From positions 9,502 to 73,501 of the forward strand of contig JBAXOD010000003.1 of the NCBI GenBank assembly GCA_037133435.1: a stretch of 64,000 nucleotides of DNA, given 5' to 3'. The position numbers were made by a program, and so were the translations under genes. Below the pieces are notes generated by a model, which did no database searches, was not told the origin of the DNA, and was given only the letters and a program-made list of their open reading frames with translations. Origin of the DNA: Candidatus Moraniibacteriota bacterium. GTDB taxonomy: Bacteria > Patescibacteriota > Minisyncoccia > Moranbacterales > UBA1568. Of this stretch, positions 16,055 to 60,340 are shown piece by piece (within the stretch, counting starts at the first letter, position 1; every line of letters begins with the position of its first letter).

Positions 16055-17200
16055 ATGTTCACGATCGGGACGGACAACGGCCACGGCCGCACGGGCACGC
16101 TTCGGACGGGGTCGGGGAGGATTCCTACCCCGTTTTTCATGCCGGATGCGACACGCGCGGCGGTTCGCGGGACGACCGCGGCCGAAATCGCGCAATCCGG
16201 CATCGGGGCGATCGTCGTCAATACGTATCACCTCATGCTTCAGCCCGGGGCGATGCTCGTTCGCGATGCCGGCGGAATCCATCGGTTCATGGGGTGGGAG
16301 GGCCCCGTACTTTCCGATTCGGGAGGATATCAGATCTATTCGCTGATTCATCGGAATCCGGAAATGGGAAAGATCACCGAGGAGGGAGCCGAATTCAAGT
16401 CTGTACTCGACGGCTCGAAACACCTGCTGACACCCGAGCGGGCGATCGCGATCCAATTCGATCTCGGCGTGGATATGATGGTCGTCCTCGATGATCCGCG
16501 TCCGAACGACGTGCCGGAAACCGAAATTTCCGAGGCGGTCGAACGCACGATCCGTTGGGCGAAACGGAGCCGGGAGGAATTCGATCGGCAGATCGCGGCG
16601 CGTGGATTGTCCGACGAGTCCAGGCCGCTTCTCTTCGGGGTCGTGCAAGGCGGTATGTTTCCCGAGTTGCGGACCCGCTGTGCGGAAGGGCTTCGTGAGA
16701 TCGGTTTCGACGGATACGGGTTCGGTGGCCGTCACGTCGATGCGGAGGGGAATTTCCTCGAGGATATAGTGCGTCATACCGCGGCCGTCATTCCCGTAGA
16801 AAGCGTCCGATTCGCGCTCGGAGTGGGTACTCCCGAGGATATCGTCCGCTGTCATGCGCTCGGTTGGGATATGTTCGATTGCGTGATCCCGACGCGGGAA
16901 GGAAGACACGGGAGACTCTTTCTTCGGAAGAAAAAACTGACAACTGACAACTTACAACTGACGACGGGGGATTTTTACGAAACGATCAATATACACAATG
17001 AGCGGTTCACGGCGGATTTCACGCCGATCGATCCGGACTGCGATTGTCCGCTGTGTGCGAACCACACTGCCAGTTACCTGCATCACCTGTTCCGCGTGAA
17101 CGATCCGCTCGGCAGCCGGCTCGCGTCGACGCACAATCTCCGTTTCTACGCGCGACTTATGGAGCAACTGCATAAAGAAAAAGTGAAGACGGAAGAATAA
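16055..17200 (+). CDS. tgt: queuine tRNA-ribosyltransferase
   Basis: TGT motifs PDATRAAVRG, YHLMLQPG, LGVDMMVVLDD and the zinc site CDCPLCANHTASYLHHL. Carries an in-frame heptamer-repeat insertion (KLTTDNLQLTTG). Confidence 0.85.
   Translation: MFTIGTDNGHGRTGTLRTGSGRIPTPFFMPDATRAAVRGTTAAEIAQSGIGAIVVNTYHLMLQPGAMLVRDAGGIHRFMGWEGPVLSDSGGYQIYSLIHRNPEMGKITEEGAEFKSVLDGSKHLLTPERAIAIQFDLGVDMMVVLDDPRPNDVPETEISEAVERTIRWAKRSREEFDRQIAARGLSDESRPLLFGVVQGGMFPELRTRCAEGLREIGFDGYGFGGRHVDAEGNFLEDIVRHTAAVIPVESVRFALGVGTPEDIVRCHALGWDMFDCVIPTREGRHGRLFLRKKKLTTDNLQLTTGDFYETINIHNERFTADFTPIDPDCDCPLCANHTASYLHHLFRVNDPLGSRLASTHNLRFYARLMEQLHKEKVKTEE
16936..16965 (+). repeat. ACAACTN heptamer array inside tgt coding sequence (in frame)
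   Basis: actgacaactgacaacttacaactgacgacggggg encodes LTTDNLQLTTG between the conserved PTREGRHGRLF and DPDCDC segments. The same array type is common in intergenic spacers. Confidence 0.55.
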
Positions 17201-17313
17201 ATGACGTTCCGTATCGTTCGGTTTAAGATGATTTGTTGTCAGTTGCCCGCTCGCGATGACGAGCAGGTCCGCCACGGGGATGACGCGGATAAGTCGTAAG
17301 TCATGCGAATCAT

Positions 17314-20046
17314 ATGAATGAGGAAAAACCGTTTTATCAATTGTCCGCCATGGAGGCGCTCGCCCGGTTGAAGACCTCCGCGAACGGACTGTCCGGAGCC
17401 GAGGCCGCCACACGGCAGAAACTGTACGGAAAGAACGCCATCGAGATAAAGCGTCGTTTCGTCGTGACGAAGCTCTTCGTCAAGCAGTTCAACGACGTAT
17501 TCGTGTGGATACTGGCGGTGGCCGGTGTGGCGGCGCTCGCGCTCGGCGAGTCGCGGGACGCGAACATTATCGCGATAATCATCCTTACCAACGCGGCGAT
17601 CGGGTTCTTCCAGGAATTCAAGGCGGAACGGATCATCGAGAAGCTCGCGACGTTCATCGCCGATACCGCGACCGTCATCCGCGACGGCGAGAAGCACGAG
17701 ATTCCGGTTGCGGACCTCGTTCCAGGCGATGTCGTGTTCCTCGATGCCGGATCGAGCATACCGGCGGATGCCGCCGTGCTCGAGGCGTACAACTTCAAGG
17801 TGAACAGTTTCATCTTCACCGGGGAATCGGTGCCGGAGAAACGCTTTTCCGGCGCGATGACGGGGATAGTCGCCAAAAGTGACATCAACAATCTCGTCTT
17901 CATGGGAGAATCGGTCGCGTCCGGCGAGGCTCGGGTCGTGATCTTCGCTACCGGCATCTCGACCGGACTCGGCCATATGGCCGAACTCACGCACGGGATA
18001 AAGGACATTCAGACGCCGTTGCAGAAGAAGATGGAGCGGTTCGGTCGCAGCGTGGCATTTCTCTCGATCTCGATCGGCGGCATCGTCGTCATAATCGGTC
18101 ATTATCAGCATATCCCGCTCTATCAGTCATTACTTCTCGCTTTGGCGCTTTCGGTGTCGGTGGTGCCGGAAGGATTGCCCGCGGCGCTCTCGGTCGCGTT
18201 CGCGCTCGGGATGAAACGTCTCCTGTCGAAGAACGTCCTCGCGAAGAAACTCTCGGCCGTGGAAACGCTCGGGTCGGTGTCGTTCGTGTGTACCGACAAG
18301 ACGGGTACGATCACCAAGAACGAATTGTCGGTATTGAAGATCATCCTCGGAACCGGGGAGTATGACCTGTCCGGAGCGGGATATGAACCCAAGGGCGATT
18401 TTTCACTCGATGGAAAGCTGGTGAACCCGTCCGGTATTCCGGGGGCGGAAATGTTGTTCCGCATCTGCACGCTTTGCAACGATTCGGCGCTGTCGAAAGA
18501 GGACGGGCGGTACAAGGTGACGGGCGACCCGACCGAAGGGGCGCTCATCGTCGCGGCACGGAAGTACAATTCCCGCCCCGACTTTTTCGAGATCGGCTAT
18601 CGGAAGGTCGCGGAGAACCCGTTCGAGTCGGAACGGCGTCGGATGAGCGTGGTGTATGAAAACGACGAGACGCGGTCGTATGTGAAGGGATCTCCCGAGA
18701 GTCTCTTGGACCTTTCGACAGAGTGGATCGAGAACGGCGTGCAAAAGCCGCTCACGGAAGAGGATAAGGCCCGACTCCGCGCGATCTATGAAGACCTGTC
18801 CTCGCAGGCGCTCCGGGTGCTCGGATTCGCCTATCGGGATCTCAACGGTATCTCACCGAACGCATACCCCGAGGAATCCGAACGGAATCTCGTTTGGGTC
18901 GGTATGACCGCGATGATCGATCCGCCGCGCGAGGGGATACGTGAGGCGATCGCGGAATGTCGGCTTCTCGGCGTGTCGGTCGTGATGGTGACGGGGGACT
19001 ACGAGACGACGGCCAAGGCGATCGCGAAGAAAGCAGGGTTTTTCGCGGAGGGGTCGGAAGCGATTTCCGTCAACGGGACCATATTCGACGCGCTTTCCGA
19101 TGATGCGATCCTTGCAGCCGCGAAAAAAGGCGCCGTGTTCGCGAGAATCGCGCCCGAGCAGAAGCTGCGGCTCGCGACGGTACTGCAAACTGGCGGTGAG
19201 GTGGTCGCGATGACGGGGGATGGTGTGAACGATGCTTTGGCTCTCAAGAAGGCCGATATCGGCGTCGCGATGGGCATCACCGGGACCGACGTGTCCAAGG
19301 ATGCCGCGGACATGATCCTTCTCGATGATCATTTCGCGTCCATCGTACGTGCCATACGGGAGGGGCGTCGGATCTTCGAGAACCTGCGCAAATTCACGCA
19401 TTACGTTTTCACCTCGAACGCGAGTGAGCTCTTTTCAGTACTGCTCGGGTTCCTCTTGCATATCCCGTCGCCGATCTCCGCGGTACAGATCCTCGCGATC
19501 GATCTGGCGACGGACGTTTTCCCGTCCTTCGCGCTCGGTGTGGAACCCGAGGAACCGGACTCGAAGAGTCACTCTTCTCCGGCGATGGGACGCAAGATCA
19601 TGGACGGGCGCGGCGTGATAAGGCTGCTCTCCATCGGGGCGATCATGGCGATCGGTGGCGTGACCGCGTTTCTCTTGGTGCTTGCCCGCGAAGGGTGGGC
19701 GTACGGCGACGATCTCGATCCGGTGAGTCTGCTCTATCGGCATGCGACGACCGCGACGTATGTGACGCTCGCCCTGACCCAGATGGCGAACCTGCTGCAG
19801 TCGCGGAGCGAGTCGCGTTCGTTCTTCAAGATGCCGTTTTTCTCGAACCCGATGGTCTTTATCGGTATGGGAATATCCATCATGATGCTGTTCCTGTTCA
19901 CGCAGGTGACATTTTTCCAGGACGCGCTCGGCATGGCACCGATCGAACGGATCGACTGGGCGGTGGCATGGTGCTTTACCGCACTCGTCTTCTTCTACGA
20001 GGAATCCCGCAAGCGCGGCGTTCGGAAAGCGACGGAGAATGCCTGA
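17314..20046 (+). CDS. cation-transporting P-type ATPase (P2-type, Ca2+/Mg2+-like)
   Basis: Phosphorylation motif CTDKTGTIT, hinge motif TGDGVNDALALKKADIGVAMG, about 10 TM segments. 910 aa. Confidence 0.85.
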   Translation: MNEEKPFYQLSAMEALARLKTSANGLSGAEAATRQKLYGKNAIEIKRRFVVTKLFVKQFNDVFVWILAVAGVAALALGESRDANIIAIIILTNAAIGFFQEFKAERIIEKLATFIADTATVIRDGEKHEIPVADLVPGDVVFLDAGSSIPADAAVLEAYNFKVNSFIFTGESVPEKRFSGAMTGIVAKSDINNLVFMGESVASGEARVVIFATGISTGLGHMAELTHGIKDIQTPLQKKMERFGRSVAFLSISIGGIVVIIGHYQHIPLYQSLLLALALSVSVVPEGLPAALSVAFALGMKRLLSKNVLAKKLSAVETLGSVSFVCTDKTGTITKNELSVLKIILGTGEYDLSGAGYEPKGDFSLDGKLVNPSGIPGAEMLFRICTLCNDSALSKEDGRYKVTGDPTEGALIVAARKYNSRPDFFEIGYRKVAENPFESERRRMSVVYENDETRSYVKGSPESLLDLSTEWIENGVQKPLTEEDKARLRAIYEDLSSQALRVLGFAYRDLNGISPNAYPEESERNLVWVGMTAMIDPPREGIREAIAECRLLGVSVVMVTGDYETTAKAIAKKAGFFAEGSEAISVNGTIFDALSDDAILAAAKKGAVFARIAPEQKLRLATVLQTGGEVVAMTGDGVNDALALKKADIGVAMGITGTDVSKDAADMILLDDHFASIVRAIREGRRIFENLRKFTHYVFTSNASELFSVLLGFLLHIPSPISAVQILAIDLATDVFPSFALGVEPEEPDSKSHSSPAMGRKIMDGRGVIRLLSIGAIMAIGGVTAFLLVLAREGWAYGDDLDPVSLLYRHATTATYVTLALTQMANLLQSRSESRSFFKMPFFSNPMVFIGMGISIMMLFLFTQVTFFQDALGMAPIERIDWAVAWCFTALVFFYEESRKRGVRKATENA

Positions 20047-20173
20047 GAAACGAAGTATTCGAATATTTTCTTCCGGCCAGGGATGCTGCTTGCATACCCC
20101 GGGCTTTTCTGGTAGATTCCGAGGTTGGCATATTTCAGATATTCTTTATCAATCCATAAAAAGGACGGCATAC

Positions 20174-20932: not shown

Positions 20933-20948
20933 AGCAAGGAGTGTGAAT

Positions 20949-20976
20949 GGACGACTTTCAACGGTCGTCCTTTTTA
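20949..20976 (+). terminator. Rho-independent terminator
   Basis: ggacgac-tttcaac-ggtcgtcc followed by ttttt, immediately after the 20174..20932 gene. Confidence 0.55.
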
Positions 20977-21114
20977 TTTCGTCTGACTTTCACCCCGATA
21001 CGGCACATCGATCGGAGAGATGTCGGTTGTAATGAAAATCCATCGTCTAGATTCAACGCTCGTTCCGTGGTATATTTCACGGTAGAGTCGATGTTCTAGA
21101 GGGAAACATTCTAC

Positions 21115-21327
21115 ATGGATATGTCAACGACAGCATTCGGTATCATCGCGATTCTCGTACTGCTGGTGTTCGCCTGGCCACGTGCCCGGGCGTTCTTTTC
21201 ACAGCCCTCGTTGTTGGTCCTTTCGATCGCCTTCGTTGTGGCGATTCTTGCGGTAACGGTCATCATCCCTGAGACGCAGCGGTATGGAGGGGAGCTTACT
21301 AATGCATCGACAGGCGATGCGGGATAG
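21115..21327 (+). CDS. small hypothetical membrane protein
   Basis: 70-aa ORF with two hydrophobic helices. Weak support. Confidence 0.3.
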   Translation: MDMSTTAFGIIAILVLLVFAWPRARAFFSQPSLLVLSIAFVVAILAVTVIIPETQRYGGELTNASTGDAG

Positions 21328-21666: not shown

Positions 21667-21793
21667 TATAAATCGGGAGTCTCCCACCCCTCAGTCATGA
21701 ATACATGACAGCTCCCCTCGGGCAGCCCGCCCGTATCACTACGTGAAACGTTGTGGACAGGGGGAGCAGGAACGTACTATAACGATATTTCTA

Positions 21794-23283: not shown

Positions 23284-23284
23284 T

Positions 23285-24907: not shown

Positions 24908-25082
24908 TAAGGGACTACGTTCCCAATGGTAAGGAGTTTCAGTCCCTTCTATCTATAAGGTACCAGCAAATAGTATTCGGTATATACGTTATCCTTGCAG
25001 TCATGATGTGATTGTGCCAAGATGAAGTGTTTCACGTTCCCATTCATTATTCATAATTCCTTATTCCTAATTCCGCACCGAT

Positions 25083-29888: not shown

Positions 29889-30036
29889 CCGATATGCTCT
29901 CACCCCTCACCCAGCATACGCGGGTCAAGAGTCATGAATACATGACAGCTCCCCTTCCCAAAGGGACCCTGTTGGGGCTGGCAGGGGAGGAGGAGATCGT
30001 TTCCTCCCTCACTCCCTACTTCTGTCTTCAAGGTCT

Positions 30037-33635: not shown

Positions 33636-34062
33636 AAGTATTACTAACAACTCACAATTAACAACTGACAACGACCGAAAATACAAGAGACGAAGACACT
33701 ATATCAATCTAACAATTTATCAATATAACGATGTAGCTATCGAGTCAACGATTTGTTTCCGGAACGGTCCGGGGACATAAGTCGATTGGAAGATCTAGTG
33801 ACAGATAACAGATATTGATATAAGCATCCCCTTCTCCCTCTGGGAGAAGGTGGATCGGTACTCCGAGACGGATGAGGGTCGGGTTCAGGGACGGGTCTAA
33901 TGAATTCAGACCCTCACCTGTCAGGAATACCTGACATCCTCTCCCGGAGGGAGAGGTGACAGAAAAAGGGAGTGAGGGAGGGGAAGGTTTTGAAGTGGCA
34001 GACAGAAAGACGGAAAAAGGAACCCTATATCGCAATCTATCATTCATTGATTCAAAAACACT

Positions 34063-35738: not shown

Positions 35739-36617
35739 ATGCCGAACGTGGCCGATATCAGACGGAGAATAAAGGGCGTGAAGAGCACGGGGAAAATCAC
35801 CCGGGCTATGGAAATGGTGTCCGCCGCCAAGGTTCGCCGTGCGGTTCAGACTGCAACGGCACTTCGACCGTATGCCGAGGAGGCGATATCAGTACTTCGT
35901 CAGGTCCGCCTCGCATTCCCCGAGAACAAGCATCCGCTCCTTGAAACGCGTGAGACGAACAAACGGATCGTTCTCTTGGTCAGTGGGAATCGTGGACTCG
36001 CCGGGACATTCTATGCGCAACTCTTCCGCGCGCTTCGTGCACACCTGTCGGATATTTCCGGCGAGGTGTCATTCATCACGATCGGCAAGAAGAGCGACGC
36101 GCAGGCGAAACGGATGGAAAAGGACGTACTCGCGTCGTTCCCGGATATTCTCGCTCTTCCCACGGCGGAGTCGGTGCGTCCGGTCGCCAAGATGCTCCTC
36201 GAAGAATATCGTTCCGGTCGGACGGACCGTATCGAGGTGGCCTATACGAACTTCTTTTCCATGATGCGGCAGGAGCCGGTCATACGGACGATCCTCCCGA
36301 TCTCGTCGGAAGAGGCGGAGTCCGAGCTCGAAGTCTCGGGTCGCAAACCGGAAGAGGGGAAATACGCGATCGAACCGGGGCCGGACGCGGTACTCGAGAC
36401 GATGGTGCCGCGGCTCCTCGAGGTCGAGATCTTTCACGCGATCCTCGAATCGAATGCGTCACAAGAAGCGGCGCGCATGATGGCGATGCGAAGCGCGACC
36501 GATGCGGCGACTGAGATGGCTGAGGGACTTACGCTCTCCTATAACCAGCTGCGACAGTCCAAGATCACCCAGGAAATCGCCGAGCTCTCGGCGGGGAAAG
36601 CAGCTTTGGAAAACTGA
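35739..36617 (+). CDS. atpG: F0F1 ATP synthase subunit gamma
   Basis: Starts MPNVADIRRRIKGVKSTGKITRAMEMVSAAKVRRA; ends ...YNQLRQSKITQEIAELSAG. Both are canonical. Confidence 0.85.
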   Translation: MPNVADIRRRIKGVKSTGKITRAMEMVSAAKVRRAVQTATALRPYAEEAISVLRQVRLAFPENKHPLLETRETNKRIVLLVSGNRGLAGTFYAQLFRALRAHLSDISGEVSFITIGKKSDAQAKRMEKDVLASFPDILALPTAESVRPVAKMLLEEYRSGRTDRIEVAYTNFFSMMRQEPVIRTILPISSEEAESELEVSGRKPEEGKYAIEPGPDAVLETMVPRLLEVEIFHAILESNASQEAARMMAMRSATDAATEMAEGLTLSYNQLRQSKITQEIAELSAGKAALEN

Positions 36618-36732
36618 CAACGTACAACGTACAACTAACAACTTATAACTTACAACGGGGAAATCGCAGTTAACAATGAACAACTAACAACTAACGACAG
36701 GGAAATCATAACTAACAACCAACAACGACTGA
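36612..36732 (+). repeat. longest ACAACTN heptamer array in the window
   Basis: ctgacaacgtacaacgtacaactaacaacttataacttacaacgggg ... caactaacaactaacgacaggg ... actaacaaccaacaacgac. Similar arrays lie at about 33625, 35690(-), 38344, 38824(-), 43557, 44591, 45781, 45850(-) and 60233. Confidence 0.6.
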
Positions 36733-36942
36733 AAATGCACACGAAGAAAACAATGTAACAATACGGCAATAGAGTAGTGGAGCAATATGACAATGTAAAT
36801 ATCGAAAGTCGATTTGAAAGGGAGGAAGTGAGAATGAAAAATTAAGTGGATTCTTTGCTCCCACCCCTCAGTCTCGAAGACTCGACAGCTCCCCTCGGGC
36901 AGGGGAGCGGGCGGGAAAAGAATGAACGTAATCTCGTATTAG

Positions 36943-38349
<1,407 letters not shown>

Positions 38350-38462
38350 CAACCAACAACTGACAACGGGGAGCGGGGAGGGGACTGACAACTAACAACT
38401 AACAACTGACCACTGACAACGGGGAATTGGGAGTAGGGGGGTGATTTGAAATAGTAAAAGAT

Positions 38463-38822
38463 ATGGAAAAATTCCGGTTCAGGAAATGGAAAGTGTACAA
38501 TGATTCGCAGGAGCTCTTTTCCCTTATTCTGAAAATTGTTAAGGATCTACCGAAAGAATTCCGTTTCGAAATAGGAAGTCAGATGATCCATGCCGCCTTG
38601 TCGGTAGCGCTTAATATTGCGGAAGGAAGTGGAAAAACTACGGATAAGGAACTGAATCGTTTTCTGAATATTTCCCTCGGCTCCCTCTATGAGACGATGA
38701 CGGCAATGGATGCGTTGAAATTAAACGGGATGGTTCAAGAAGAGCGGTATGATGAGGCGATGAAACAGATAGATGGGATTTCAAACCAGCTTGGTGGGTT
38801 AAAGAAAACACTTGTGAAATGA
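38463..38822 (+). CDS. four-helix-bundle protein (23S rRNA IVS protein / Avd-like family) inserted between atpD and atpC
   Basis: The 119-aa protein (ELFSLILKIVKDLPKEFRFEIGSQMIHAALSVALNIAEGSGKTTDKELNRFLNISLGSLYET...) fits the family. It is flanked by heptamer arrays in opposite orientations: acaactN upstream, ttgtaag downstream. Confidence 0.65.
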   Translation: MEKFRFRKWKVYNDSQELFSLILKIVKDLPKEFRFEIGSQMIHAALSVALNIAEGSGKTTDKELNRFLNISLGSLYETMTAMDALKLNGMVQEERYDEAMKQIDGISNQLGGLKKTLVK

Positions 38823-38850
38823 CGGTTGTAAGTTGTAAGTTGTAAGTTGT

Positions 38851-39413: not shown

Positions 39414-42400
39414 ATGGAAGGGCGATATATTCCCGAGAATATCGAGGGAAAGTGGCAGAAAAAATGGGAGGAACAAGGGACGTTCCGGCAATACGGCCGT
39501 GAGCGGAAGTTCTATGCGCTTGATATGTTCCCGTACCCTTCGGGGGCCGGGCTGCATGTGGGGCATCCGAAGGGCTATATCGCGACGGATGTGATCGCAC
39601 GGATGAAACAGCTTCAGGGGTATGCGGTGCTGCATCCGATGGGGTGGGACGCATTCGGTCTCCCGGCGGAACAGTACGCGATCAAGAATAAGACGCATCC
39701 GAGCAAGACGACGCGGGAGAATGTCGCCACCTTCAAGGGGCAGCTCGGCCGGCTCGGCTTCACGTACGACTGGGATCGTGAGATCAATACGACCGACCCG
39801 GAGTATTACAAGTGGACACAGTGGATATTTCTGCAGATGCTGAAGAAGGGGCTCGCGTATGAATCGTACGAGCCGATTATCTGGTGTCCGTCGTGCCAGA
39901 CGGGACTCGCGAACGAGGATCTGGAGAACGGCGCGTGCGAGCGGTGCGGGACGATCGTCGAGAAGAAACCGATGCGCCAGTGGGTGCTGCGCATCACCGA
40001 TTATGCTGATCGACTATTGGAAGGGCTCGGCTCGCTTGATTGGCCGGAGTCGATCAAGGAATCGCAGCGCAACTGGATCGGACGGAGCGAAGGAACCGTC
40101 ATACGGTTCCAAATCATAAATCCCAAATTACAATTTCCAAACAAATCCCAAAACACGGATTCGAAATCACAAACGAAGGAGGAATTCATCGAGGTGTTCA
40201 CGACGCGGGTGGATACGCTGTATGGTTGCACCTATGTGGTGGTGGCGCCTGAACATCCTTTGATCAGGGAACAGTTAACAGATAACAGTGAACAGATAGC
40301 AGAGATCAAGAATTGGGAAGAGGTCCGTGCGTATATCGAAGAAACGAAGAAGAAGACCGAGATGGAGCGGACGGCGGAGGGGCGCGAAAAGACCGGCGTT
40401 CGGCTCGAAGGTATCATGGCGGTCAATCCGATAAACGGTGAGGAAGTGCCGGTGTTCGTCGCGGATTATGTGCTCGGTGATTACGGTACCGGCGCGGTGA
40501 TGGCCGTCCCGGCGCACGACACGCGTGATTTCGCCTTCGCGAAAAAATACGACCTGCCGATCAAGAATGTCATCATGCCGCACCTGACCGATAAGAAGAA
40601 CCCTCCGCGGGAAGGGAAGAAGTCCGTCGAACGCAATACCATCCACGCGTTGGTACGGAATCCGAAGGACGGGAAATTCCTGTGTCTAGAGTGGAAGAAT
40701 CATCCATGGACCACATTCATCGTGGGCGGCGTGGAAGACGGTGAGGACATCGTCGAGGCCGCCAAACGGGAAGTGCTCGAGGAGACGGGATTCTCGAATC
40801 TGCGACATATCGGAACCTTGGACAGGAAAGTGCGAAGCGAATATTTCGCGGCGCACAAGGACGAGAATCGGGTCGCGAATACGACAGCGGTTTTGTTCGA
40901 ACTTGAAGACGAATCACGAGAATCGGTCACCGAGGAAGAGGTCGCGAAACACTCGGTCCTCTGGCTTTCGCTCGACGAGATCAGGAATCGCGAAATGACC
41001 TGTGCGGAACTCGATATCTGGCTTGGGTGGCTCGAAGGGAAAGACGATGCGTTCGTTGACGACGGGGCGCTTACGGATTCCAGTGAGTTTTCCGGACTCT
41101 CTTCCGAAGCCGCGCGTGAGAAAATCAACGCGAAACTTGAAGCCGATGGGAACGGGAAGAAGGTCGTGAAATACAAGCTCCGCGAGTGGGTGTTCTCGCG
41201 TCAACGGTATTGGGGGGAGCCGATCCCAGTCGTGCACTGCGAAAAGTGTGGTGTGGTGCCCGTGCCGGAAAACGAACTCCCGGTGTTTCTGCCGGATGTC
41301 GAAAGCTACGAGCCGACGGGAACGGGGGAGTCGCCTTTGGCCGCGATTGAGAGTTGGGTGAATACGACCTGTCCCACGTGCGGCGGGCCCGCGAAACGCG
41401 AGACGAATACGATGCCTCAATGGGCAGGGTCTTCGTGGTACTACCTGCGCTATATCGATCCGTTGAACCAGGACGTGCTCGTCGGCAAGGAACTGGAAAA
41501 GGAATGGATGCCGGTCGACGTGTATGTCGGCGGGGCGGAGCATGCGACACGGCACCTTATTTATGCCCGGTTCTGGCATAAGTTCCTCTTTGATATCGGC
41601 GCGATTTCGACGGACGAGCCGTTTCGGAAACTTTGCAATGTGGGGCTTATCCTCGCCTCCGACGGGCGCAAGATGTCCAAGCGGTGGGGGAACGTCGTCA
41701 ATCCGGACGATATGGTCCGCGATTTCGGCGCGGACGCGATGCGGCTCTACGAGATGTTCATGGGTCCGTTCAACCAGAATATTTCCTGGAACACCGACGG
41801 TGTCGTCGGCACGAGGCGGTTTTTGGAGAAGGTGTGGAAGCTGCAAAACAGACTTACAACTGACAACTTACCACCGACAACAGAAGAATCGGGACTGACA
41901 ACTGACAACTCATCCGCGACATCTCCGTGCGCGGACCCGCTCGCAAAGACGAGCGGGCAACCGACAAAAATAGATTGCCTTCTTCATCGGACTATCGTGA
42001 AGGTGATGGAGGACATCGAAGCTATGCGGTTCAATACGGCAGTGAGCACACTTATGATCCTTGTGAACGCGTTCGAGAAGGAAGGAACGATCACGAAGGA
42101 ATCATACGGCATCTTCCTCTTGCTCCTGTCGCCGTTCGCTCCGCATATCGCGGAAGAGCTGTGGGCCGGACTTGGAAATCCCGAATCGATATTCCTCTCG
42201 ACATGGCCCGTGGCCGACCTGGCCTTGCTTGTGGAAGATACCGTGAAAATCGTCGTCTCGGTCAACGGCAAGGTCCGCGATACGTTCGAAGTACCCGCAG
42301 ACGCGACCGAAGACGATCTGAAAGCGAAAGCGTTCGCGAGTGACAAAATCGCCAAGTTCCTCGACGGCCGGGAGCCCAAGCGCGTCATCGTCGTTCCTGG

Positions 42401-42425
42401 GAAATTGGTGAACGTGGTGGTATGA
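39414..42425 (+). CDS. leuS: leucyl-tRNA synthetase with an embedded NUDIX domain
   Basis: HIGH region (GAGLHVGHPKGY), KMSKS (KMSKRWGN), CP1 editing domain. A ~150-aa NUDIX-fold segment containing GGVEDGEDIVEAAKREVLEETG lies between ...KYDLPIKNVI and ...SSEFSGLSSEAAREKI. A heptamer/hairpin insertion (LTTDNLPPTTEESGLTTDNSS...PLAKTSGQP) sits near the anticodon-binding domain. 1003 aa. Confidence 0.9.
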   Translation: MEGRYIPENIEGKWQKKWEEQGTFRQYGRERKFYALDMFPYPSGAGLHVGHPKGYIATDVIARMKQLQGYAVLHPMGWDAFGLPAEQYAIKNKTHPSKTTRENVATFKGQLGRLGFTYDWDREINTTDPEYYKWTQWIFLQMLKKGLAYESYEPIIWCPSCQTGLANEDLENGACERCGTIVEKKPMRQWVLRITDYADRLLEGLGSLDWPESIKESQRNWIGRSEGTVIRFQIINPKLQFPNKSQNTDSKSQTKEEFIEVFTTRVDTLYGCTYVVVAPEHPLIREQLTDNSEQIAEIKNWEEVRAYIEETKKKTEMERTAEGREKTGVRLEGIMAVNPINGEEVPVFVADYVLGDYGTGAVMAVPAHDTRDFAFAKKYDLPIKNVIMPHLTDKKNPPREGKKSVERNTIHALVRNPKDGKFLCLEWKNHPWTTFIVGGVEDGEDIVEAAKREVLEETGFSNLRHIGTLDRKVRSEYFAAHKDENRVANTTAVLFELEDESRESVTEEEVAKHSVLWLSLDEIRNREMTCAELDIWLGWLEGKDDAFVDDGALTDSSEFSGLSSEAAREKINAKLEADGNGKKVVKYKLREWVFSRQRYWGEPIPVVHCEKCGVVPVPENELPVFLPDVESYEPTGTGESPLAAIESWVNTTCPTCGGPAKRETNTMPQWAGSSWYYLRYIDPLNQDVLVGKELEKEWMPVDVYVGGAEHATRHLIYARFWHKFLFDIGAISTDEPFRKLCNVGLILASDGRKMSKRWGNVVNPDDMVRDFGADAMRLYEMFMGPFNQNISWNTDGVVGTRRFLEKVWKLQNRLTTDNLPPTTEESGLTTDNSSATSPCADPLAKTSGQPTKIDCLLHRTIVKVMEDIEAMRFNTAVSTLMILVNAFEKEGTITKESYGIFLLLLSPFAPHIAEELWAGLGNPESIFLSTWPVADLALLVEDTVKIVVSVNGKVRDTFEVPADATEDDLKAKAFASDKIAKFLDGREPKRVIVVPGKLVNVVV
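41851..41960 (+). repeat. ACAACTN heptamer array plus CCCGCTCGCAAAGACGAGCGGG hairpin, in-frame in leuS
   Basis: acttacaactgacaacttaccaccgacaac...ggactgacaactgacaactcatcc followed by gacccgctcgcaaagacgagcgggcaacc. Confidence 0.55.
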
Positions 42426-42450: not shown

Positions 42451-42831
42451 ATGGAAAATGACAAAGAAAAATTCAAAGTTAAATTTAAAAGACGTCTCTA
42501 TGTATTCGCTCTTAGTATAGTGAAATGTATCGACACGCTTCCTCGTGGGACCGTATCAGACGTACTTGGAAAACAGCTCTTAAGAAGTGGAACGAGCGTA
42601 TTGGCGAATTATATTGAAGCGCAGGCGGCAAGTTCAAAAAAAGATTTCAGGAATTTCTTCTCATATTCACTGAAGTCGGCAAATGAATCAAAAGTGTGGA
42701 TTGTTCTGTTGAAGGATTCCGGAAAAATCGGGACAGAAAAGGCGGATATGCTTCTCAAGGAATGTATCGAGATATCGAATATACTTGCGAAAAGTGTCAT
42801 TACCATGAAGGAGAATGAAAAGAAGAAGTAA
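42451..42831 (+). CDS. four-helix-bundle protein (23S rRNA IVS protein / Avd-like family)
   Basis: 126-aa protein (YVFALSIVKCIDTLPRGTVSDVLGKQLLRSGTSVLANYIEAQAASSKKDFRNFFSYSLKSANESKVW). An inverted repeat gaaaaat(t/g)gagatataaaaatg lies at about 42426-42455 and, as reverse complement, at about 42850-42880. Confidence 0.6.
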   Translation: MENDKEKFKVKFKRRLYVFALSIVKCIDTLPRGTVSDVLGKQLLRSGTSVLANYIEAQAASSKKDFRNFFSYSLKSANESKVWIVLLKDSGKIGTEKADMLLKECIEISNILAKSVITMKENEKKK

Positions 42832-43555: not shown

Positions 43556-43800
43556 CTGATAACAGGAGAGTAACTGACAACTAATAACTAACAACAGATA
43601 ACAGGAAACCCGCCTTCGCTGAAACTACGGAGCGGCAAAGCAAGGAATCCCTTCCACCCCTCAGTCACGAAGACGTGACAGCTCCCCTCGGGCAGGGGAG
43701 CAGGATTCGTGAGACCTGATCAGTCTCCGTTGAAAGCTGTCAGTTATACGTTGTTAGTGCCTCTCAGCCATCAGTATTAAGTTGTGAGTCATAAGGGACT

Positions 43801-44577: not shown

Positions 44578-44711
44578 CAGGGAATAGGGGAACTGACAAC
44601 TAACAACATACAACTTATAATGGGGAACAAAAGGGATGGATTGCCACGGACGGATACGTCCTCGCAAAGACAGACGAGGATTTGTTCTCTGGTCGGCCTA
44701 AAAATCGTTGA

Positions 44712-45554: not shown

Positions 45555-45616
45555 TACCCACACGTTTATGGAAACGAAAAACGGCACGGATACGTGTCGT
45601 TTTTCGTTCTTTATAG

Positions 45617-45700
45617 TACCGCGGGAGAGACTCGAACTCTCATGGTATCGCTACCGCGGGATTTTGAGTCCCGTGTGTCTACCAGTTCCACCACCGCGGC
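45617..45700 (-). tRNA. tRNA-Leu (anticodon CAA), type II with long variable arm
   Basis: Folded by hand on the minus strand: acceptor GCCGCGG/CCGCGGU (G1-U72), 3-bp D-stem GUG/CAC, anticodon stem CGGGA/UCCCG with loop CUCAAAA, variable arm GGUAGCGAUACC, T-arm GAGAG-UUCGAGU-CUCUC, discriminator A. CCA is not encoded. Confidence 0.8.
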
Positions 45701-45940
45701 GTTTCAGCCCTTTTCTTCGGCCTCCACTAGGTTCAGGATAGGGAATTGAAAAGATAGTGTCAATGGAATATAATAGGGGAGACCTACGACTGACAACGAA
45801 CAACTTATAACGGGGAGGGGAAAGTCGTCAGGAGTGGTCGGGTCGTCGGTTGTCAGTTTGTTGTGACTTGTAAGTTTTCTCTCTGTGACTTCTGTTATTG
45901 GCTGTTAGTTGTTAGTTTTGCGTTGTTAGTGACTTCTACT

Positions 45941-46744: not shown

Positions 46745-46869
46745 GCGGACCCGCTCGCAGCGAAGAGCGGGCAGATATCAGATAGCGGAGAACTCACAAC
46801 GGGGAACGGATTTTTTGAACGGGTAGATTTTGGGAATTGTGAATTGGTCATTGATCATTCTGAATCACT

Positions 46870-48992: not shown

Positions 48993-51671
48993 ATGTCTGA
49001 AAAGGATTTTTTCGCTATCGGAGAGGAACGACGGAAGCTTCGTCACGAGGTGCTTGATGCGACCGGGTTTTCGGCACACGAAGTGTCTTCGCGTGGCGGA
49101 GTGGTCGCGAAACCGGAATTCATGAAGGAGGTCAATGAAGGCAACCTTTCAAATGTCGCGGAGAAGGTCGTGCTCGATGCGGACTCGGCGCCTTCGGTAT
49201 CCGAGGGACTTGACCGTATCGAGGCGTTGAACGAGAAAGCAAAGGAGTTCAAACTTTTTCCGGACCGACCGGAGAAAACCGAAGCGGTGTCGCCTGAACA
49301 AACGGAGCGGTCACTTTCCGATGTCCGCCGACGATATGCAAAAGCGCGCGAGGCCAAGGCGCTTGATGGTGGAGGAGAGAAGCCGACGAGGATGGATACA
49401 GAAGAGACGCTCATCGAGCCAAACGAAAAGGAACAGCGAAAGGCAAACCTTTTCCAGGAACTTTATTCGATGGAACGATTTTCCACACTCCAGAAGCAGG
49501 GTCGGTATCGTTTGTTGCGCCGACCGGAAGATGAGCGACTTGCCGAACGGCTTCGTATAGGCGCGGACCTCACGCGGACCGTCATAAAACGGCGCGAAAC
49601 ACTTGAGGCGGATGTGGATACGAGATACGTGGTCCGTGAATATGAGCTGTCGAAATATCGGCAACAGCTGACAAACGAACGCTTCGTGGTCACGCCGAGT
49701 CGGCGTGGCTATATCGATCGGATCGGATCACTCATCGAACAAGGAAAGCCGATTCTTGAGGAAGGGCATACCGGTGGTGGCAAGACCGAGCTCGCGAAGT
49801 ATGCCGCGCGCGAATGTACCGGTCGTGAAGCTGAGGTCGTGTATTGCAACCCACAGACCCGCCAGAGCGATATTTTCGGCAGGCAATCACTTCGTGAAAG
49901 TGACCGCGGGGCAACCGTGACGGATATCGATTTCGGTCCGCTCACGAGGGCTCTTACCGAAGGGAAAATCTGTATTTTCGATGAATTTAACGAGCTTGAC
50001 CCGAGATTCCGGCAGGTGCTCAAAGCCCTCTACAACGCGAAACCTGGGGACATGGTGAACGTGCCGGGCAATGGCAAAGTTCTCGTCGCACAAGGGTTCG
50101 GTTGCATCATGACCGCGAACCTCAAGAGTGAGAAATATGCCGAGAAGGGTGCGCTTGAACCGCAAGAAACACGAGTGTTTCTTGATTCGACCATTCGGAC
50201 GGACTATCCGCCTGCTTCGGAATTGTACGATGTCGCACTGTCCTCACTTGCCGATACGCAGGGGAACGTGCTTCTGACGCGCGAAGAGGCGGACACGACC
50301 CTGAAGCATTTCACCGATGCCATCCACGATATACAGGAGGCATATGCGAACACACTCCCGGCACACTATGGAAATGACACCGATTTTTCGGCGTTCGGGA
50401 AGGGGTCGAAACGGGGGAAACGACCGCAACTCGAGAAATACGTGCTCGATACCGGTATGGCGGTGCGACTCTTACAGGGATTTCGAATCGCACGGATGGA
50501 ACACGGGACATCGCTTGTCGATTTCCTCGACGAAGCACTCATCCGGACCTTCGAGGGGGACAAGATCGGTGAAGAGGACAAGCGCCTCGCGATCTATATG
50601 TTGGCCCAAAAAGGATTCCTCTCAGGATACAAGCAAGAGGACTTTCGGACACGCATCGGGGTCGATTACTCCGACAAGAAGCTCGATCCGACGACATTAT
50701 CAAAATCGAAACGAGCCGAGCTTTCTCCGGACGAAAGCTTTGCGACCCTGTCCGCCGAAGAGGTGGCGAGAATCGATCCGTATGAACGGATGAGAATCGA
50801 CGCGAATGAGGAGCTCGGATTGCCGTCCACGTCACCGGATAAGCCGGGCTCTCCTGAATACCACAGTTTCAGGGAGGCACGGGATATCTTCAAGGAGCGT
50901 TTCTATGGGCCAGAGGAAACAGAGCAGGTCTTCGGGTTCCGACCGGAAGCACCACCGATCCCGTATACAAAAGCAGACATGCTCCGGCACGAACAGCTCG
51001 GTCATATCCTGATGTACAATCCGGATATATTGCCAGACGGGACGCCGTTCGATATTCAGACCATGGCCAGTCGTGCGCTTTCCGGCGGACGCAATGTCTT
51101 GGAACGCGATGCGAGCGGAATTCCGACGAAGTATCTCCTCTACAAGGAGCAGTTTGACGAAAATGGTAAGATCTTGGACGGTGCTTGGTTTTCTGGCGAT
51201 CAAGAAGTGAAAACCGGCACCCCACAGTCTGGGTGGCAGTTTGTCTCGCCCGAGGCCTTGCCTGATACGGAAAACAAAAACTTCGTCGCGCAGACGGATA
51301 TCCTGATCGAGAATGCGAGAGAAAATTTCTTTGGCGGAGGAGTACCGGATGCATTTCAAAAAGCCGTCGATGAATGGCATTCAAAGAAGGTTATGTTCAA
51401 AGATGATGCCAACAAGCTTGCGTCGCTTCCAATCATGAACTTTGTGCGTGAACGAGTACAAAATACGATATTTCGGTTTCTCCTCGTACATGGAACAGGA
51501 AGAGGGACGCTGTTCGCGGACGGCAATTATGTCTGGTCATATGCACTCTCGTCGGGCGGCAGCCTCGTTTCCTTCGGCTTTGCGGTCGCGGTTGGCGCGG
51601 ACGTGTACGGGTACGCGCCGGTTGACTCGTACTCGGATTTGCGTGCCGTGGCCTCCCGCAGTGGATGTTGA
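48993..51671 (+). CDS. DGR target protein: MoxR-like AAA+ ATPase (AAA_5-type) with a C-terminal hypervariable (VR-encoded) domain
   Basis: Walker A LEEGHTGGGKTELAKYA, Walker B ICIFDEFNELD, sensor GFGCIMTANLK. The last ~40 codons are the VR of the DGR; they differ from the downstream TR only at adenine positions. Confidence 0.8.
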   Translation: MSEKDFFAIGEERRKLRHEVLDATGFSAHEVSSRGGVVAKPEFMKEVNEGNLSNVAEKVVLDADSAPSVSEGLDRIEALNEKAKEFKLFPDRPEKTEAVSPEQTERSLSDVRRRYAKAREAKALDGGGEKPTRMDTEETLIEPNEKEQRKANLFQELYSMERFSTLQKQGRYRLLRRPEDERLAERLRIGADLTRTVIKRRETLEADVDTRYVVREYELSKYRQQLTNERFVVTPSRRGYIDRIGSLIEQGKPILEEGHTGGGKTELAKYAARECTGREAEVVYCNPQTRQSDIFGRQSLRESDRGATVTDIDFGPLTRALTEGKICIFDEFNELDPRFRQVLKALYNAKPGDMVNVPGNGKVLVAQGFGCIMTANLKSEKYAEKGALEPQETRVFLDSTIRTDYPPASELYDVALSSLADTQGNVLLTREEADTTLKHFTDAIHDIQEAYANTLPAHYGNDTDFSAFGKGSKRGKRPQLEKYVLDTGMAVRLLQGFRIARMEHGTSLVDFLDEALIRTFEGDKIGEEDKRLAIYMLAQKGFLSGYKQEDFRTRIGVDYSDKKLDPTTLSKSKRAELSPDESFATLSAEEVARIDPYERMRIDANEELGLPSTSPDKPGSPEYHSFREARDIFKERFYGPEETEQVFGFRPEAPPIPYTKADMLRHEQLGHILMYNPDILPDGTPFDIQTMASRALSGGRNVLERDASGIPTKYLLYKEQFDENGKILDGAWFSGDQEVKTGTPQSGWQFVSPEALPDTENKNFVAQTDILIENARENFFGGGVPDAFQKAVDEWHSKKVMFKDDANKLASLPIMNFVRERVQNTIFRFLLVHGTGRGTLFADGNYVWSYALSSGGSLVSFGFAVAVGADVYGYAPVDSYSDLRAVASRSGC
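51543..51658 (+). repeat. DGR variable repeat (VR) at the 3' end of the target gene
   Basis: 116-bp gapless alignment with the TR at about 51925-52040. About 15 mismatches, every one at a TR adenine. The 3' end ...gatttgcgtgccgtggcctcccg is identical (IMH-like). Encodes ...ALSSGGSLVSFGFAVAVGADVYGYAPVDSYSDLRAVASR. Confidence 0.8.
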
Positions 51672-51924: not shown

Positions 51925-52040
51925 GCACTCTCGTCGGACGGCAACCTCGTTTACTTCGGCAATGCGGACGCGAATGGCGCGAACGTGAACGGGAACACGC
52001 CGGATGACTCGAACTCGAATTTGCGTGCCGTGGCCTCCCG
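51925..52040 (+). repeat. DGR template repeat (TR)
   Basis: gcactctcgtcggacggcaacctcgtttacttcggcaatgcggacgcgaatggcgcgaacgtgaacgggaacacgccggatgactcgaactcgaatttgcgtgccgtggcctcccg. Rich in AAC/AAT codons (8 Asn in frame). Non-coding position between the target gene and avd. Confidence 0.8.
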
Positions 52041-52052
52041 AAGGAACGGCGA

Positions 52053-55471: not shown

Positions 55472-55538
55472 TGGGTCGGAGCATAGTCTATTTTCCCGAA
55501 ATGACCTTTTCTGGTACAATGGTGGCAGGATAACTCCT

Positions 55539-56309: not shown

Positions 56310-56347
56310 CGGAAGAATAAAAAAAGGAAAAAAAATAACACAAAGCC

Positions 56348-57421: not shown

Positions 57422-57442
57422 TTCCGACCACCTGTACCACTT

Positions 57443-58231: not shown

Positions 58232-58265
58232 ACGGAATAATACGATAGAACCGATACGAAAGACT

Positions 58266-59123
58266 ATGATACGAAACACGAAGGAACTTTTGATAGAGGC
58301 GAAGAAGGACGGGTATGCCGTCGGAGCGTTCAATACCGTCAATCTCGAGACGAGCAAGGCGATTCTCGATGCAGCCGCCGAACTCTCGGCTCCGGTCATC
58401 GTGCAACTCACGGAAAAGACAATGGAATATGCTGGAGGACGGGTCCTTTTTCAGTTGATCCGGAACATGGCCGAATTCTATCATCCGAACCTTCCTGTGG
58501 CGATCCATCTCGATCACGGGAAGAGTTTCGAGATCGTGGAACGGGCCATCGAGATCGGATTGCCGTCCGTCATGTACGACGGCTCGCGGCACACGTACGG
58601 CGATAATATCCGCACGACCGCGAAGGTCGTCACGTTCGCTCATACGAAAGGTGTTTCCGTACAGGGGGAACTCGGGAATGTTCCGTACCTTTCCGAGGTG
58701 AACGGGGCCATCGATTGGGACAAATATATGACCGATCCCGACGAGGCGGTACGGTTCGTCAAGGATACCGGTATCGATACGCTCGCGGTGGCTATCGGAA
58801 ACGCGCACGGATTCGCGACGGAACGGCCCGAGCCGGACTATGACCGGCTCTCCGAAATCGCCGGAAAAGTCTCCATACCGCTCGTCTTGCATGGCGCATC
58901 CGACTGGGAGGATGGCCGGGCGGAAGAGGCAATCAAGCGCGGCATTTCCTGTTTCAATGTCGATACCGCCATCAAACTCGCGTTCGTCGGTGCGGTGACT
59001 CGGGCCATCGGGGAAGGTGACAAGACCGATATCCGAAGTATCCTCGAGCCGGCTCGCGAGGCGGTCAAGGCGGAAGTGAAACGCAAGATACGGCTGTTCG
59101 GAGCCGCGGGAAAAGCAGCGTAG
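58266..59123 (+). CDS. fba: class II fructose-bisphosphate aldolase
   Basis: GAFN, HLDHG, LHGAS(D) motifs of class II FBA. Confidence 0.85.
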   Translation: MIRNTKELLIEAKKDGYAVGAFNTVNLETSKAILDAAAELSAPVIVQLTEKTMEYAGGRVLFQLIRNMAEFYHPNLPVAIHLDHGKSFEIVERAIEIGLPSVMYDGSRHTYGDNIRTTAKVVTFAHTKGVSVQGELGNVPYLSEVNGAIDWDKYMTDPDEAVRFVKDTGIDTLAVAIGNAHGFATERPEPDYDRLSEIAGKVSIPLVLHGASDWEDGRAEEAIKRGISCFNVDTAIKLAFVGAVTRAIGEGDKTDIRSILEPAREAVKAEVKRKIRLFGAAGKAA

Positions 59124-59230
59124 TCGAACGTCCATCAAGTCCATAAAGTCACGAATCGAAAATCGTGAATATGGTCGGGAGATGGCAAATGTGGAATCAA
59201 AAATCATAAAAAACGATAACACGAAAACAT

Positions 59231-60229
59231 ATGGCGGCGAAAAAAATAGCTATCAACGGTTTCGGGCGGATCGGACGTGCCGCGTTCAAGATCGCACTGC
59301 AGCGGAAAGGAAGCGAAGTGGTCGCGATTAACGATTTGACGGATGCGCCGACTCTGGCGCATCTGCTCCGATTCGATACCGCGTATGGGATATACCGTCA
59401 CCAGGTGAAAGCAGAGAAGGACGCGATCATCGTGGACGGGAAGCGGTACCCGGTCTTCTCCGAGCCGGATCCGAAAAAACTGCCCTGGAAGGATCTCGGT
59501 GTCGATGTCGTCTTGGAATGTACGGGGCGCTTCGTCGACGGGGAATCGGCCGGCCAGCACCTGTTTGCGGGTGCGGGCAAGGTCGTGCTGTCGGCTCCGC
59601 CCAAAGGGGAAAACGAGATCCCGACCTATCTCATCGGCGTGAACGATCGGGAATACAAGGGCGAGGCCATCGTTTCGAACGCGTCGTGCACCACCAACTG
59701 CATCGCGCCGGTCGCGAAGATCATCTCGAAGCGGTTCGGGATCGTGAAGGCCATGATGACGACCATCCATTCGTACACGGCCGATCAGAACCTTGAGGAC
59801 GGTCCGCATCGCGATCTTCGTCGCGCGCGCGCGGCGGCACAAAACATCGTACCGACCACGACCGGCGCGGCGATTTCGGTGGCGCGGCTCCTTCCGGAGA
59901 TCGCGGGGAAGTTCGACGGGCTCGCCATCCGCGTTCCCACGCTCGTCGCGTCGTTGACCGACTTCACTTTCCTCGTCTCGAAGAAGACGACCGCCGAAGA
60001 GGTGAACGCCGCGATCGAGGAAGCGAGCCGGGACAAGGAATACGCCCGGGCGCTTGCCGTCACGCGGGAACCTCTGGTCTCGTCGGATTTCGTCGGCAAT
60101 CCGTTCTCGAGCATCGTCGATCTCTCTCTGACCAAAGTGGTGGACGGCGACCTTGTAAAAGTCATGGCGTGGTATGATAATGAATGGGGATACTCGAACC
60201 GGCTCGTCGAACTCGCCGAAGAAATATAG
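59231..60229 (+). CDS. gap: glyceraldehyde-3-phosphate dehydrogenase
   Basis: INGFGRIGR NAD-binding, active-site SNASCTTNC, WYDNEWGYS. Confidence 0.9.
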   Translation: MAAKKIAINGFGRIGRAAFKIALQRKGSEVVAINDLTDAPTLAHLLRFDTAYGIYRHQVKAEKDAIIVDGKRYPVFSEPDPKKLPWKDLGVDVVLECTGRFVDGESAGQHLFAGAGKVVLSAPPKGENEIPTYLIGVNDREYKGEAIVSNASCTTNCIAPVAKIISKRFGIVKAMMTTIHSYTADQNLEDGPHRDLRRARAAAQNIVPTTTGAAISVARLLPEIAGKFDGLAIRVPTLVASLTDFTFLVSKKTTAEEVNAAIEEASRDKEYARALAVTREPLVSSDFVGNPFSSIVDLSLTKVVDGDLVKVMAWYDNEWGYSNRLVELAEEI

Positions 60230-60340
60230 TCAAAAAACCACAACATACAACATACAACTTACAACTCTCAACCACCACTGTTTTTCCATCCGTGACAGTT
60301 TCCGGGTTGTCCGTTGTCAGTCGTAAGTTGTCAGTTACGT

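Follow-up and report, generated by a model that had tools for sequence, protein, structure and literature searches.

How does a repeat of only seven nucleotides come to occupy so many gene junctions of one bacterial genome, and how can it lie in frame inside housekeeping genes? We addressed this in a 64-kb stretch of DNA (the window; positions are counted from its first letter), where tandem arrays of the heptamer ACAACTN fill spacers of an ATP operon and its surroundings and also interrupt tgt and leuS. Judging from the best homologs of Tgt and AtpG, which are named Candidatus Moranbacteria or Moraniibacteriota, the window comes from a Candidatus Moranbacteria-like bacterium of the candidate phyla radiation (CPR). 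The arrays consist of head-to-tail units in many dispersed copies, lie mainly between genes and are polymorphic in copy number; they are a lineage-specific family within the known class of heptanucleotide tandem repeats. The explanation we favour, with a probability of roughly 60%, is a selfish or neutral family akin to short tandemly repeated repetitive (STRR) sequences, which would be dispersed as a module, resized by slippage and filtered by selection inside genes.

Relatives were sampled as 80 metagenome loci around tgt orthologs with three further tgt loci, and as four loci orthologous to the ATP operon (L085, L086, L087 and L088, with AtpG identities of 97%, 87%, 86% and 82%, respectively).

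A heptamer family with a common module

A register-aware scan requiring cores 7 nt apart found 16 period-7 arrays with an ACAAC core in the window, 14 of them intergenic and two in frame inside genes, namely tgt and leuS (Table 1). Period 7 was likewise the commonest period in the window by Tandem Repeats Finder, with 19 rows that include all array sites, and the number of identical 5-mers was 222 at a lag of 7, 117 at a lag of 8 and 77 at a lag of 5, with ACAAC as the leading word. Two adjacent units (ACAACTNACAACT) were matched 11 times against 0.00 expected from 100 shuffles of the window. The arrays listed by an earlier, sequence-only reading of this DNA are therefore confirmed, essentially where it had placed them and with clear enrichment over shuffled sequence. 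Its size range of 3 to 15 units held in part: contiguous arrays have 3-7 units, and 15 is reached only by the composite at 36610-36728, which is made of three sub-arrays. The unit appears as CAACTGA, CAACTAA or CAACTTA (ACAACTN rotated), with sporadic ATAACTN units. (ACAACTN)n has no self-complementarity and so lacks the palindromic hairpin in each unit that marks repetitive extragenic palindromic (REP) sequences and their hairpin-forming doublets (REPINs); separate hairpin families are present in the window. A search of the whole window at Rfam gathering scores returned a transfer-messenger RNA (tmRNA) and tRNA-Leu only, with no match for the arrays. A second heptamer family, ATTCNTN, was seen at 25042-25074, and its complement GAATNNN builds the arrays that follow atpG in L087.

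Aligned in register, most plus arrays close with ACAAC-GGGGA or a near variant of it. The typical module, in the window and its relatives, is ACTG-ACAACTN-ACAACTN-ACNACTN-ACAACGG-GGA, or about four units. The terminus ACAACGGGGA was found four times against 0.13 expected; three of these copies close arrays and the degenerate forms ACGACGGGGGA, ACGACAGGGAA, ATAACGGGGA, ATAATGGGGA and ATAACAGGAAA terminate most of the remaining plus arrays. That arrays commonly end in this way, as had been claimed, is thus often true, although the fourth copy, at 46796, stands without an array. A rare ACCAC unit lies beside the terminus at unrelated sites: in the spacer between atpD and a gene for a 23S-rRNA-intervening-sequence protein (IVP), in the atpA-atpG spacer (on the minus strand), in leuS and in tgt of L011. 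Because this derived variant is shared by unrelated sites, copying between sites, by insertion or gene conversion, is its best explanation. The idea of a second mobile micro-element, raised in the sequence-only reading, gains support from this ACCAC-bearing module and from the copies in ileS described below. The module terminating in ACAACGGGGA, the shared ACCAC unit and the inverted pairs around inserts are three traits specific to the clade.

Size change and turnover among relatives

ACAACTN-type arrays were also found in seven loci of relatives (L085, L087, L088, L005, L007, L011 and L153), which removes the earlier caveat that they might not extend beyond the window. Across 935 kb of related loci, non-overlapping arrays of period 7 numbered 121, compared with 41, 67 and 99 for periods 6, 8 and 9, and for arrays of at least four copies the counts were 76 and 8, 9 and 4, respectively. 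The size of period-7 arrays has a mode at 4-4.5 copies, or about 30 nt (41 of 162 arrays, loci L002-L084), whereas periods 6, 8 and 9 only decay. Non-coding sequence makes up roughly 12% of the related loci and holds about half of their period-7 arrays, an enrichment of about 7-fold on crude open reading frame (ORF) calls.

Copy number differs at fixed sites. Between identical flanks after bacA, the window has 3-4 units and L085 has 8-9; in the atpD-IVP spacer, the [array + GGGGAGCGGGGAGGGGACTG] module is present twice in the window and three times in L085. Such changes are expected if modules of 7, 21 and 42 nt slip or are exchanged unequally. The unit itself also turns over: a heptamer array directly follows the atpG stop in all five genomes compared, built from ACAACNN in the window and L088, GTAGTNA in L085, AATTTCG in L086 and GAATNNN in L087. 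A general rule of one heptamer flavour per genome, copied in the coding insert, was considered and rejected, as relatives hold several unit families each; the tgt, leuS and ileS inserts of this clade do use the dominant ACAACTN family.

The same spacers hold other small elements. In relatives, small genes for a DUF559 endonuclease, a Y1 transposase and GIY-YIG proteins fill the spacers of the ATP operon, where the window has arrays and hairpins only. A conserved element of about 50 nt (GTCAACGATTTGTTTCCGGAACGGTCCGGGGACATGAGTCGATTTGAAAG), with no match in Rfam, lies at 33745-33780 and in the atpG-atpD spacers of L085, L086 and L087. A dispersed hairpin family (CCACCCCTCAGTC..GACAGCTCCCCTCGGGCAGGGGAGC) occurs at 21681-21734, 29930-29955, 36858-36911 and 43651-43704, and relatives carry copies elsewhere.

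In-frame copies in tgt, leuS and ileS

The in-frame copies were found as described in the sequence-only reading. The tgt array translates to LTTDNLQLTTG; in leuS the peptide is LTTDNLPPTTEESGLTTDNSS, and a hairpin follows in frame. Measured against insert-free orthologs, the insert in tgt has 30 nt, a multiple of 3 and not of 21, so the proposal that coding copies always come in multiples of 21 nt fails for tgt; the leuS modules, of 21 and 42 nt, follow it approximately. The Tgt insert sits in the turn between GRHGRLF and FYETINI, which corresponds to FTWDGP of the Z. mobilis enzyme, and its loop has a predicted local distance difference test (pLDDT) score below 50 in an AlphaFold model that was used only for placing the insert. 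What fills this turn varies by Moranbacteria lineage: LTTDNLQLTT from ACAACTN, other heptamers (CAGGATA, AATTTCA, AATCTCG, AAAGTCN and others), palindromic hairpins, or nothing, as in P0029, which is located on a contig of 826 kb. The Tgt turn is an insertion hot spot across Moranbacteria.

The leuS insert lies between KVWKLQNR and IDxLLH. In the window it measures 117 nt, with about 60 nt of array followed by the in-frame hairpin; it reaches 258 nt in L085, is shorter in L087 and L088, and changes in whole-codon steps. This linker of the leucyl-tRNA synthetase (LeuRS) typically has 14-19 residues across CPR. In the isoleucyl-tRNA synthetase (IleRS) gene ileS, L007 and L011 hold the array module in frame, terminus included, and the copy in L008 is degenerate; IleRS of the same type in L016, L024 and L038 has only VDEPG at this position. 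Within the tgt, leuS and ileS arrays of the clade, T-N-A triplets read in frame have T or C at N in 18 of 18 units, compared with G in 27 of 37 units read out of frame. The selection that had been proposed for in-frame copies is borne out by these stop-free units and by the whole-codon variation of leuS. Survival of stop-free, whole-codon versions in permissive loops points to selection acting as a filter and is not evidence of function.

That the coding copies are sequencing or assembly artefacts, an objection anticipated in the sequence-only reading, is next to impossible. An independent Logan assembly codes for the identical Tgt protein, and orthologs from many metagenomes have the same insert at that site with the frame intact.

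LeuRS has further insertions. An inserted NUDIX domain (PF00293; 40635-40991, residues 408-526) is kept in L085, L087 and L088, and in LeuRS of L085 and L088 about 125 further residues are inserted behind the CxxC motif. Two more in-frame inserts of repeat origin vary among relatives, one formed by a 14-nt TTCCAAATCACAAA array (IINPKLQFPNKSQNTDSKSQ; 40107-40173) and the other by AACAGNT heptamers (QLTDNSEQ; 40270-40303). The hairpin GGACCCGCTCG..CGAGCGGGC is read in frame in leuS as SPCADPLAKTSGQ (41937-41965) and has a second copy after parA (46751-46779).

Placement of arrays at gene ends

Plus arrays begin no more than about 20 nt from the stop codon of the preceding gene, some directly at it (atpH, atpG, atpD, rnt, bacA and gap), distances that agree with the earlier remark that arrays mostly lie immediately 3' of genes. 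Start codons are abutted only by reverse-oriented arrays (atpC, atpG and bacA). The first array unit supplies the final 1-3 residues of AtpD, the last codon of AtpG and the stops of both; the AtpD C-terminus is EAAN*, ETNN* or ETDN* among array carriers and DAKA* in L086, which is array-free there. Whichever frame is read, the forward unit presents a TGA or TAA, which keeps an ORF from running far into an array.

The N position differs with orientation. It is A 26, G 23, T 15 and C 3 times in plus arrays (A or G in 49 of 67), and T 20, G 8, C 5 and A 2 times in minus arrays, so stop codons are kept on the sense strand in both orientations. Owing to this difference in usage, any stems between opposite arrays would mismatch at every seventh base. 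GC skew is positive over the whole window, which therefore contains no origin or terminus of replication, and the 12:4 bias between plus and minus arrays is inseparable from gene direction.

In a promoter and terminator scan of the 33-47 kb region, no array coincided with a terminator-like site and most arrays had no promoter-like match; only two array ends resemble promoters. These are CTGACA-17-TATAAT at 44593-44621 and TTGAAA-17-TATAAT at 45746-45774, at or next to array ends, and both TATAAT boxes run straight into GGGGA or AGGGGA. The suggestion that the arrays serve as protein-binding sites, terminators or uptake signals finds no support: they have no Rfam match, terminator-like sites lie elsewhere and both orientations are present.

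Inverted pairs and intervening-sequence-protein genes

About half of the arrays form inverted pairs that bracket inserted DNA. At the atpD-atpC junction of the window, L085 and L087, arrays are followed by an IVP gene, then (GTTGTAA)x4 and directly the ATG of atpC. L086 has a gap of 4 nt between atpD and atpC, without arrays or IVP gene, and comparison of the junctions suggests that this is the ancestral, array-free state. At the nucleotide level the IVP gene is 94% identical to the L087 copy, compared with 78-84% for atpG, atpD and atpC, and three genomes share an identical (GTTGTAA)x4 before atpC while their flanking genes are only 78-93% identical.

At seven junctions the beginning and end of the spacer are more complementary than expected from shuffled controls, with z from -2.3 to -6.0; besides those around IVP genes, inverted pairs were seen in the rnt-bacA, tRNA-parA, gap-amidohydrolase and L087 atpG-atpD spacers. 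In the atpH-atpA and atpG-atpD spacers of the window, end complementarity was not above shuffled controls. Partnerless arrays are those at 33643, 36610 and 44592 and those in tgt, leuS and ileS. The arrays flanking three IVP genes differ in sequence, with duplex z values of -5.1 for the gene at 38463, -2.9 for that at 42451 and -4.1 for that in L003. The latter two genes (42451-42831 in the window and 2915-3292 in L003) have their own inverted short-period arrays, and at all three IVP genes the arrays abut both start and stop codons. GGGGA-like pentamers flank some modules (44580/44621 and 45771/45813) and not those of tgt or 60240, and are suggestive at most as a target duplication. Y1 transposase genes were found in relatives only, with no established tie to the arrays.

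Table 1 Arrays, genes and related features of the window and of the orthologous spacers in relatives.
Feature	Position	Strand	Remark
Plus arrays (n = 12, register-aware scan)	16933-16967 (tgt), 33647, 36610, 36673, 36708, 38342, 38388, 41856 (leuS), 43577, 44596, 45786, 60240	+	
Minus arrays (n = 4, register-aware scan)	35688, 38823, 45892 (plus 45849), 60304	-	
tgt ORF	16055-17200		PF01702
In-frame tgt array AAAACTG ACAACTG ACAACTT ACAACTG ACGACGG GGGA	16933-16972	+	encodes KLTTDNLQLTTGD
Array-rich stretch	33-46 kb		atpH-atpA-atpG-atpD, PF05635 IVP gene, atpC, leuS, second IVP gene, RNase T-like gene, bacA (uppP), folD, tRNA-Leu, parA-parB
Array after atpH	33643-33674	+	starts 8 nt past the stop codon
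Complement array directly before atpG start codon	35688-35727	-	has the ACCAC variant unit
Composite of three sub-arrays split by GGGGAAATC / GGGAAATC	36610-36728	+	higher-order period 42 nt; atpG stop TGA inside first unit
Two modules, both terminating in ACAACGGGGA, with GCGGGGAGGGGACTG between	38342-38425	+	first unit carries atpD end and stop
23S-rRNA-intervening-sequence-protein gene (PF05635) between inverted arrays	38463-38822	+	missing from L086
(GTTGTAA)x4 touching IVP stop and atpC start	38823-38850	-	complementary to upstream arrays; identical in L085 and L087; duplex z = -5.1
leuS ORF	39414-42425		
In-frame leuS arrays, two modules in 21 nt register	41853-41912	+	LTTDNLPPTTEESGLTTDNS
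Array after RNase T-like gene	43573-43610	+	17 nt past the stop; terminus ATAACAGGAAA
Degenerate complement array directly before bacA (uppP) start	43724-43797	-	partner of the 43573 array; z = -3.9
Array after bacA	44592-44626	+	15 nt past the stop; terminus ATAATGGGGA
Array between tRNA-Leu and parA	45782-45818	+	terminus ATAACGGGGA
Degenerate complement arrays before parA	45849-45931	-	partner of the 45782 array; z = -2.3
Lone ACAACGGGGA between parA and parB	46796-46805	+	without array
Array after gap	60240-60274	+	11 nt past the stop codon
Complement array, inverted pair with 60240-60274	60304-60336	-	about 30 nt between arms; z = -4.3
Small genes in ATP-operon spacers of relatives	L085 2706-3053, 7541-7897, 11291-11647; L086 14711-14891; L087 16874-17212; L088 3742-4068		

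Other features of the window

The window has a G+C content of 54%. A tmRNA gene lies at 3813-4210 on the minus strand, with the tag peptide ANIVSKVKMAFANAFSPSFASALA, and tRNA-Leu(CAA) at 45616-45700. A repeat family TGGATTGCCACGG..CCTCGCAAAGAC has three copies, at 2185-2314 and 44637-44674, and a direct repeat of 119 nt with 87% identity occurs at 51543-51661 and 51925-52043, its copies 382 nt apart.

Discussion

Under the explanation we favour, a short module of about four units with the ACAACGGGGA end would be copied to new sites, either by repair or recombination templated by other copies or by travelling as the ends of small insertion cassettes. At fixed sites, replication slippage or unequal recombination would then alter the number of units. 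Arrays would accumulate where they are tolerated, at gene junctions and in the permissive loops of tgt, leuS and ileS, and selection would only filter them, so that whole-codon, stop-free versions in disordered loops survive in genes. Several points weigh against this account. Neither the window nor the sampled relatives yielded a copying enzyme or mechanism, and the survey covered about 64 kb of the host genome with orthologous pieces of relatives. Plain slippage does not predict the tight placement at stops and starts, the preference for stops on the sense strand or the mode of 4-4.5 units, which could reflect function, and the identical (GTTGTAA)x4 in three genomes may reflect conservation or recent spread of a cassette.

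In a possible, if doubtful, alternative, the arrays are stem-forming terminal inverted repeats of small cassettes resembling intervening sequences (IVS), with an insertion point precisely at the junction of one stop codon and the following start codon. As cargo the cassettes would carry IVP genes, hairpins or nothing, solo arrays (those in tgt and leuS too) would be half-sites or footprints, and the operon transcript might be processed at the stems in the manner of RNase III sites. Three independent IVP genes within inverted arrays of different sequence, the inverted pairs in four further spacers, the absence of the whole insert from L086 and the higher identity of the IVP gene than of its neighbours between the window and L087 all agree with such cassettes. 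Against them, several arrays have no partner, the stems would be mismatched at every seventh base, and neither a transposase nor a target-site duplication was established, the GGGGA flanks being suggestive at most. An extended form of this proposal has mobile IVS-like cassettes, with Avd-like or IVP four-helix-bundle cargo, hairpins or none, home into stop-start junctions and leave solo arrays as footprints, the unit and the mode of about four units being set by machinery such as a multi-OB-fold (oligonucleotide/oligosaccharide-binding fold) protein or templated synthesis rather than by slippage; we consider it unlikely.

Rather doubtful as well is that the arrays are functional cis elements of RNA or single-stranded DNA, in which each unstructured, C/A-rich and G-poor heptamer binds one OB-fold or similar domain (cold-shock protein, ribosomal protein S1, CsrA at the ACA..GGA end, or Rho) and so sets translation coupling, mRNA stability or termination between genes. 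Both orientations occur inside one operon, the unit differs among close relatives at the same site, which speaks against a sequence-specific binder, and L086 has no arrays at the same junctions; moreover, copy number differs more than two-fold between relatives with 97% identical AtpG, no Rfam family matches and the copies inside enzymes cannot share an intergenic function. The close fit of arrays to stop and start codons, their modal size of about four units and the site after atpG, always heptameric though the unit differs by genome, would nevertheless suit such a role, as would the two -10-like TATAAT boxes followed by GGGGA at array ends and the binding of S1, cold-shock protein (Csp) and CsrA proposed for TAACTGA repeats (PMC4679880). 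If instead each array had been born separately by local polymerase slippage, as an ordinary microsatellite and with no copying between sites, variable length at fixed sites and the many different heptamer units within and between related genomes would follow readily, and Mrazek's idea that 7 nt suits slippage, as cited in PMC4679880, would apply. This is quite unlikely: one core is common to 16 arrays in 64 kb, unrelated sites, three different genes among them, have the ACAACGGGGA end and the rare ACCAC unit in common, and array sizes have a mode at 4-4.5 units in place of a steady decay. Cassettes and binding sites are compatible with a selfish or neutral module that is dispersed, resized and filtered; purely local slippage and artefact are the unlikely readings.

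With these findings, heptanucleotide repeat families reach into CPR bacteria, in whose small and streamlined genomes such an amount of repeat DNA at operon junctions is surprising. Three sites, in the tgt loop, the LeuRS linker and IleRS, are natural 'insertion traps' that record which micro-repeats are active in each lineage, and they offer a handle on both the spread of repeats and the tolerance of proteins for them. Why a length of seven is favoured in bacteria is an old question, on which the (C/T)AACTGA-type units of distant phyla, the modal size of about four units and the tight placement at stops and starts all bear.

Comparison with known repeat systems

Tandem heptamers of this kind have precedents, and full-text literature searching found no paper that ties heptamer repeats to CPR or Patescibacteria. 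The classical STRR units of cyanobacteria are CCCCAGT, TTGGTCA and CAACAGT, which differ from the unit here. As in those repeats and in the long simple sequence repeats surveyed by Mrazek, the arrays of the window are dispersed tandem heptamers with several families per genome, intergenic and strain-variable; unlike the cyanobacterial STRR, they are hosted by a small CPR genome. Elhai and colleagues reportedly described in 2008 very short cyanobacterial repeats that lie inside conserved genes and are associated with tandem heptamers. Hairpin elements and heptamers coexist here in the same spacers and at the same tgt and leuS sites, although the heptamer arrays, unlike small dispersed cyanobacterial repeats resembling miniature inverted-repeat transposable elements, are not palindromic. 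Rapid change in repeat number recalls the contingency loci of phase variation, but the genes concerned here are housekeeping rather than surface or virulence genes, and the frame is kept in all relatives, with no switching.

Among the matches listed for GTDB species genomes, four consecutive ACAACTN units occur in Calothrix, Nostoc, Microcoleus and Stigonema, as well as in Flavobacteriales and Cytophagales (Bacteroidota), Acidobacteriota, Planctomycetota, Saccharibacteria and one Moraniibacteriota genome. In these listed matches, arrays of other phyla have mostly G or A at N and a 3' flank other than GGGGA.

The closest comparison is with the TAACTGA direct repeats of marine Beggiatoaceae, cyanobacteria and Bacteroidetes (MacGregor 2015, PMC4679880). 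These occur in sets of 2-6 copies, mostly intergenic, with a minority in ORFs near protein ends; forward copies have stops in all three frames and overlap upstream stop codons, and most are forward-oriented and sit within a few nucleotides of the start codon that follows (PMC4679880). Binding by S1, Csp or CsrA was MacGregor's proposal, and CAACTGA is tabulated in the same work as a one-base variant encoding QLTTDN (PMC4679880). As that paper cites him, Mrazek found heptanucleotides to be the commonest long simple sequence repeats in bacteria and proposed that 7 nt suits polymerase slippage. The arrays of the window share the 7-nt unit, one base apart as CAACTGA, the mostly intergenic location and the patchy distribution among phyla, the stops in three frames with overlap of the upstream stop (the atpG and atpD stops lie in the first unit), and the occasional in-ORF copies at the protein periphery. 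They differ in that the unit is not TAACTGA and that forward arrays mostly follow stop codons rather than directly preceding starts. They are set further apart by their CPR host, by the G-rich terminus ACAACGGGGA, by a module length of about four units and by inverted pairs that enclose inserts, and their in-ORF copies lie within the housekeeping enzymes tgt, leuS and ileS, in place of mainly hypothetical proteins. The arrays are thus a real new example of a known phenomenon, in which the CPR host, the enzyme hot spots, the GGGGA terminus, the four-unit mode and the IVP-flanking inverted pairs stand out.

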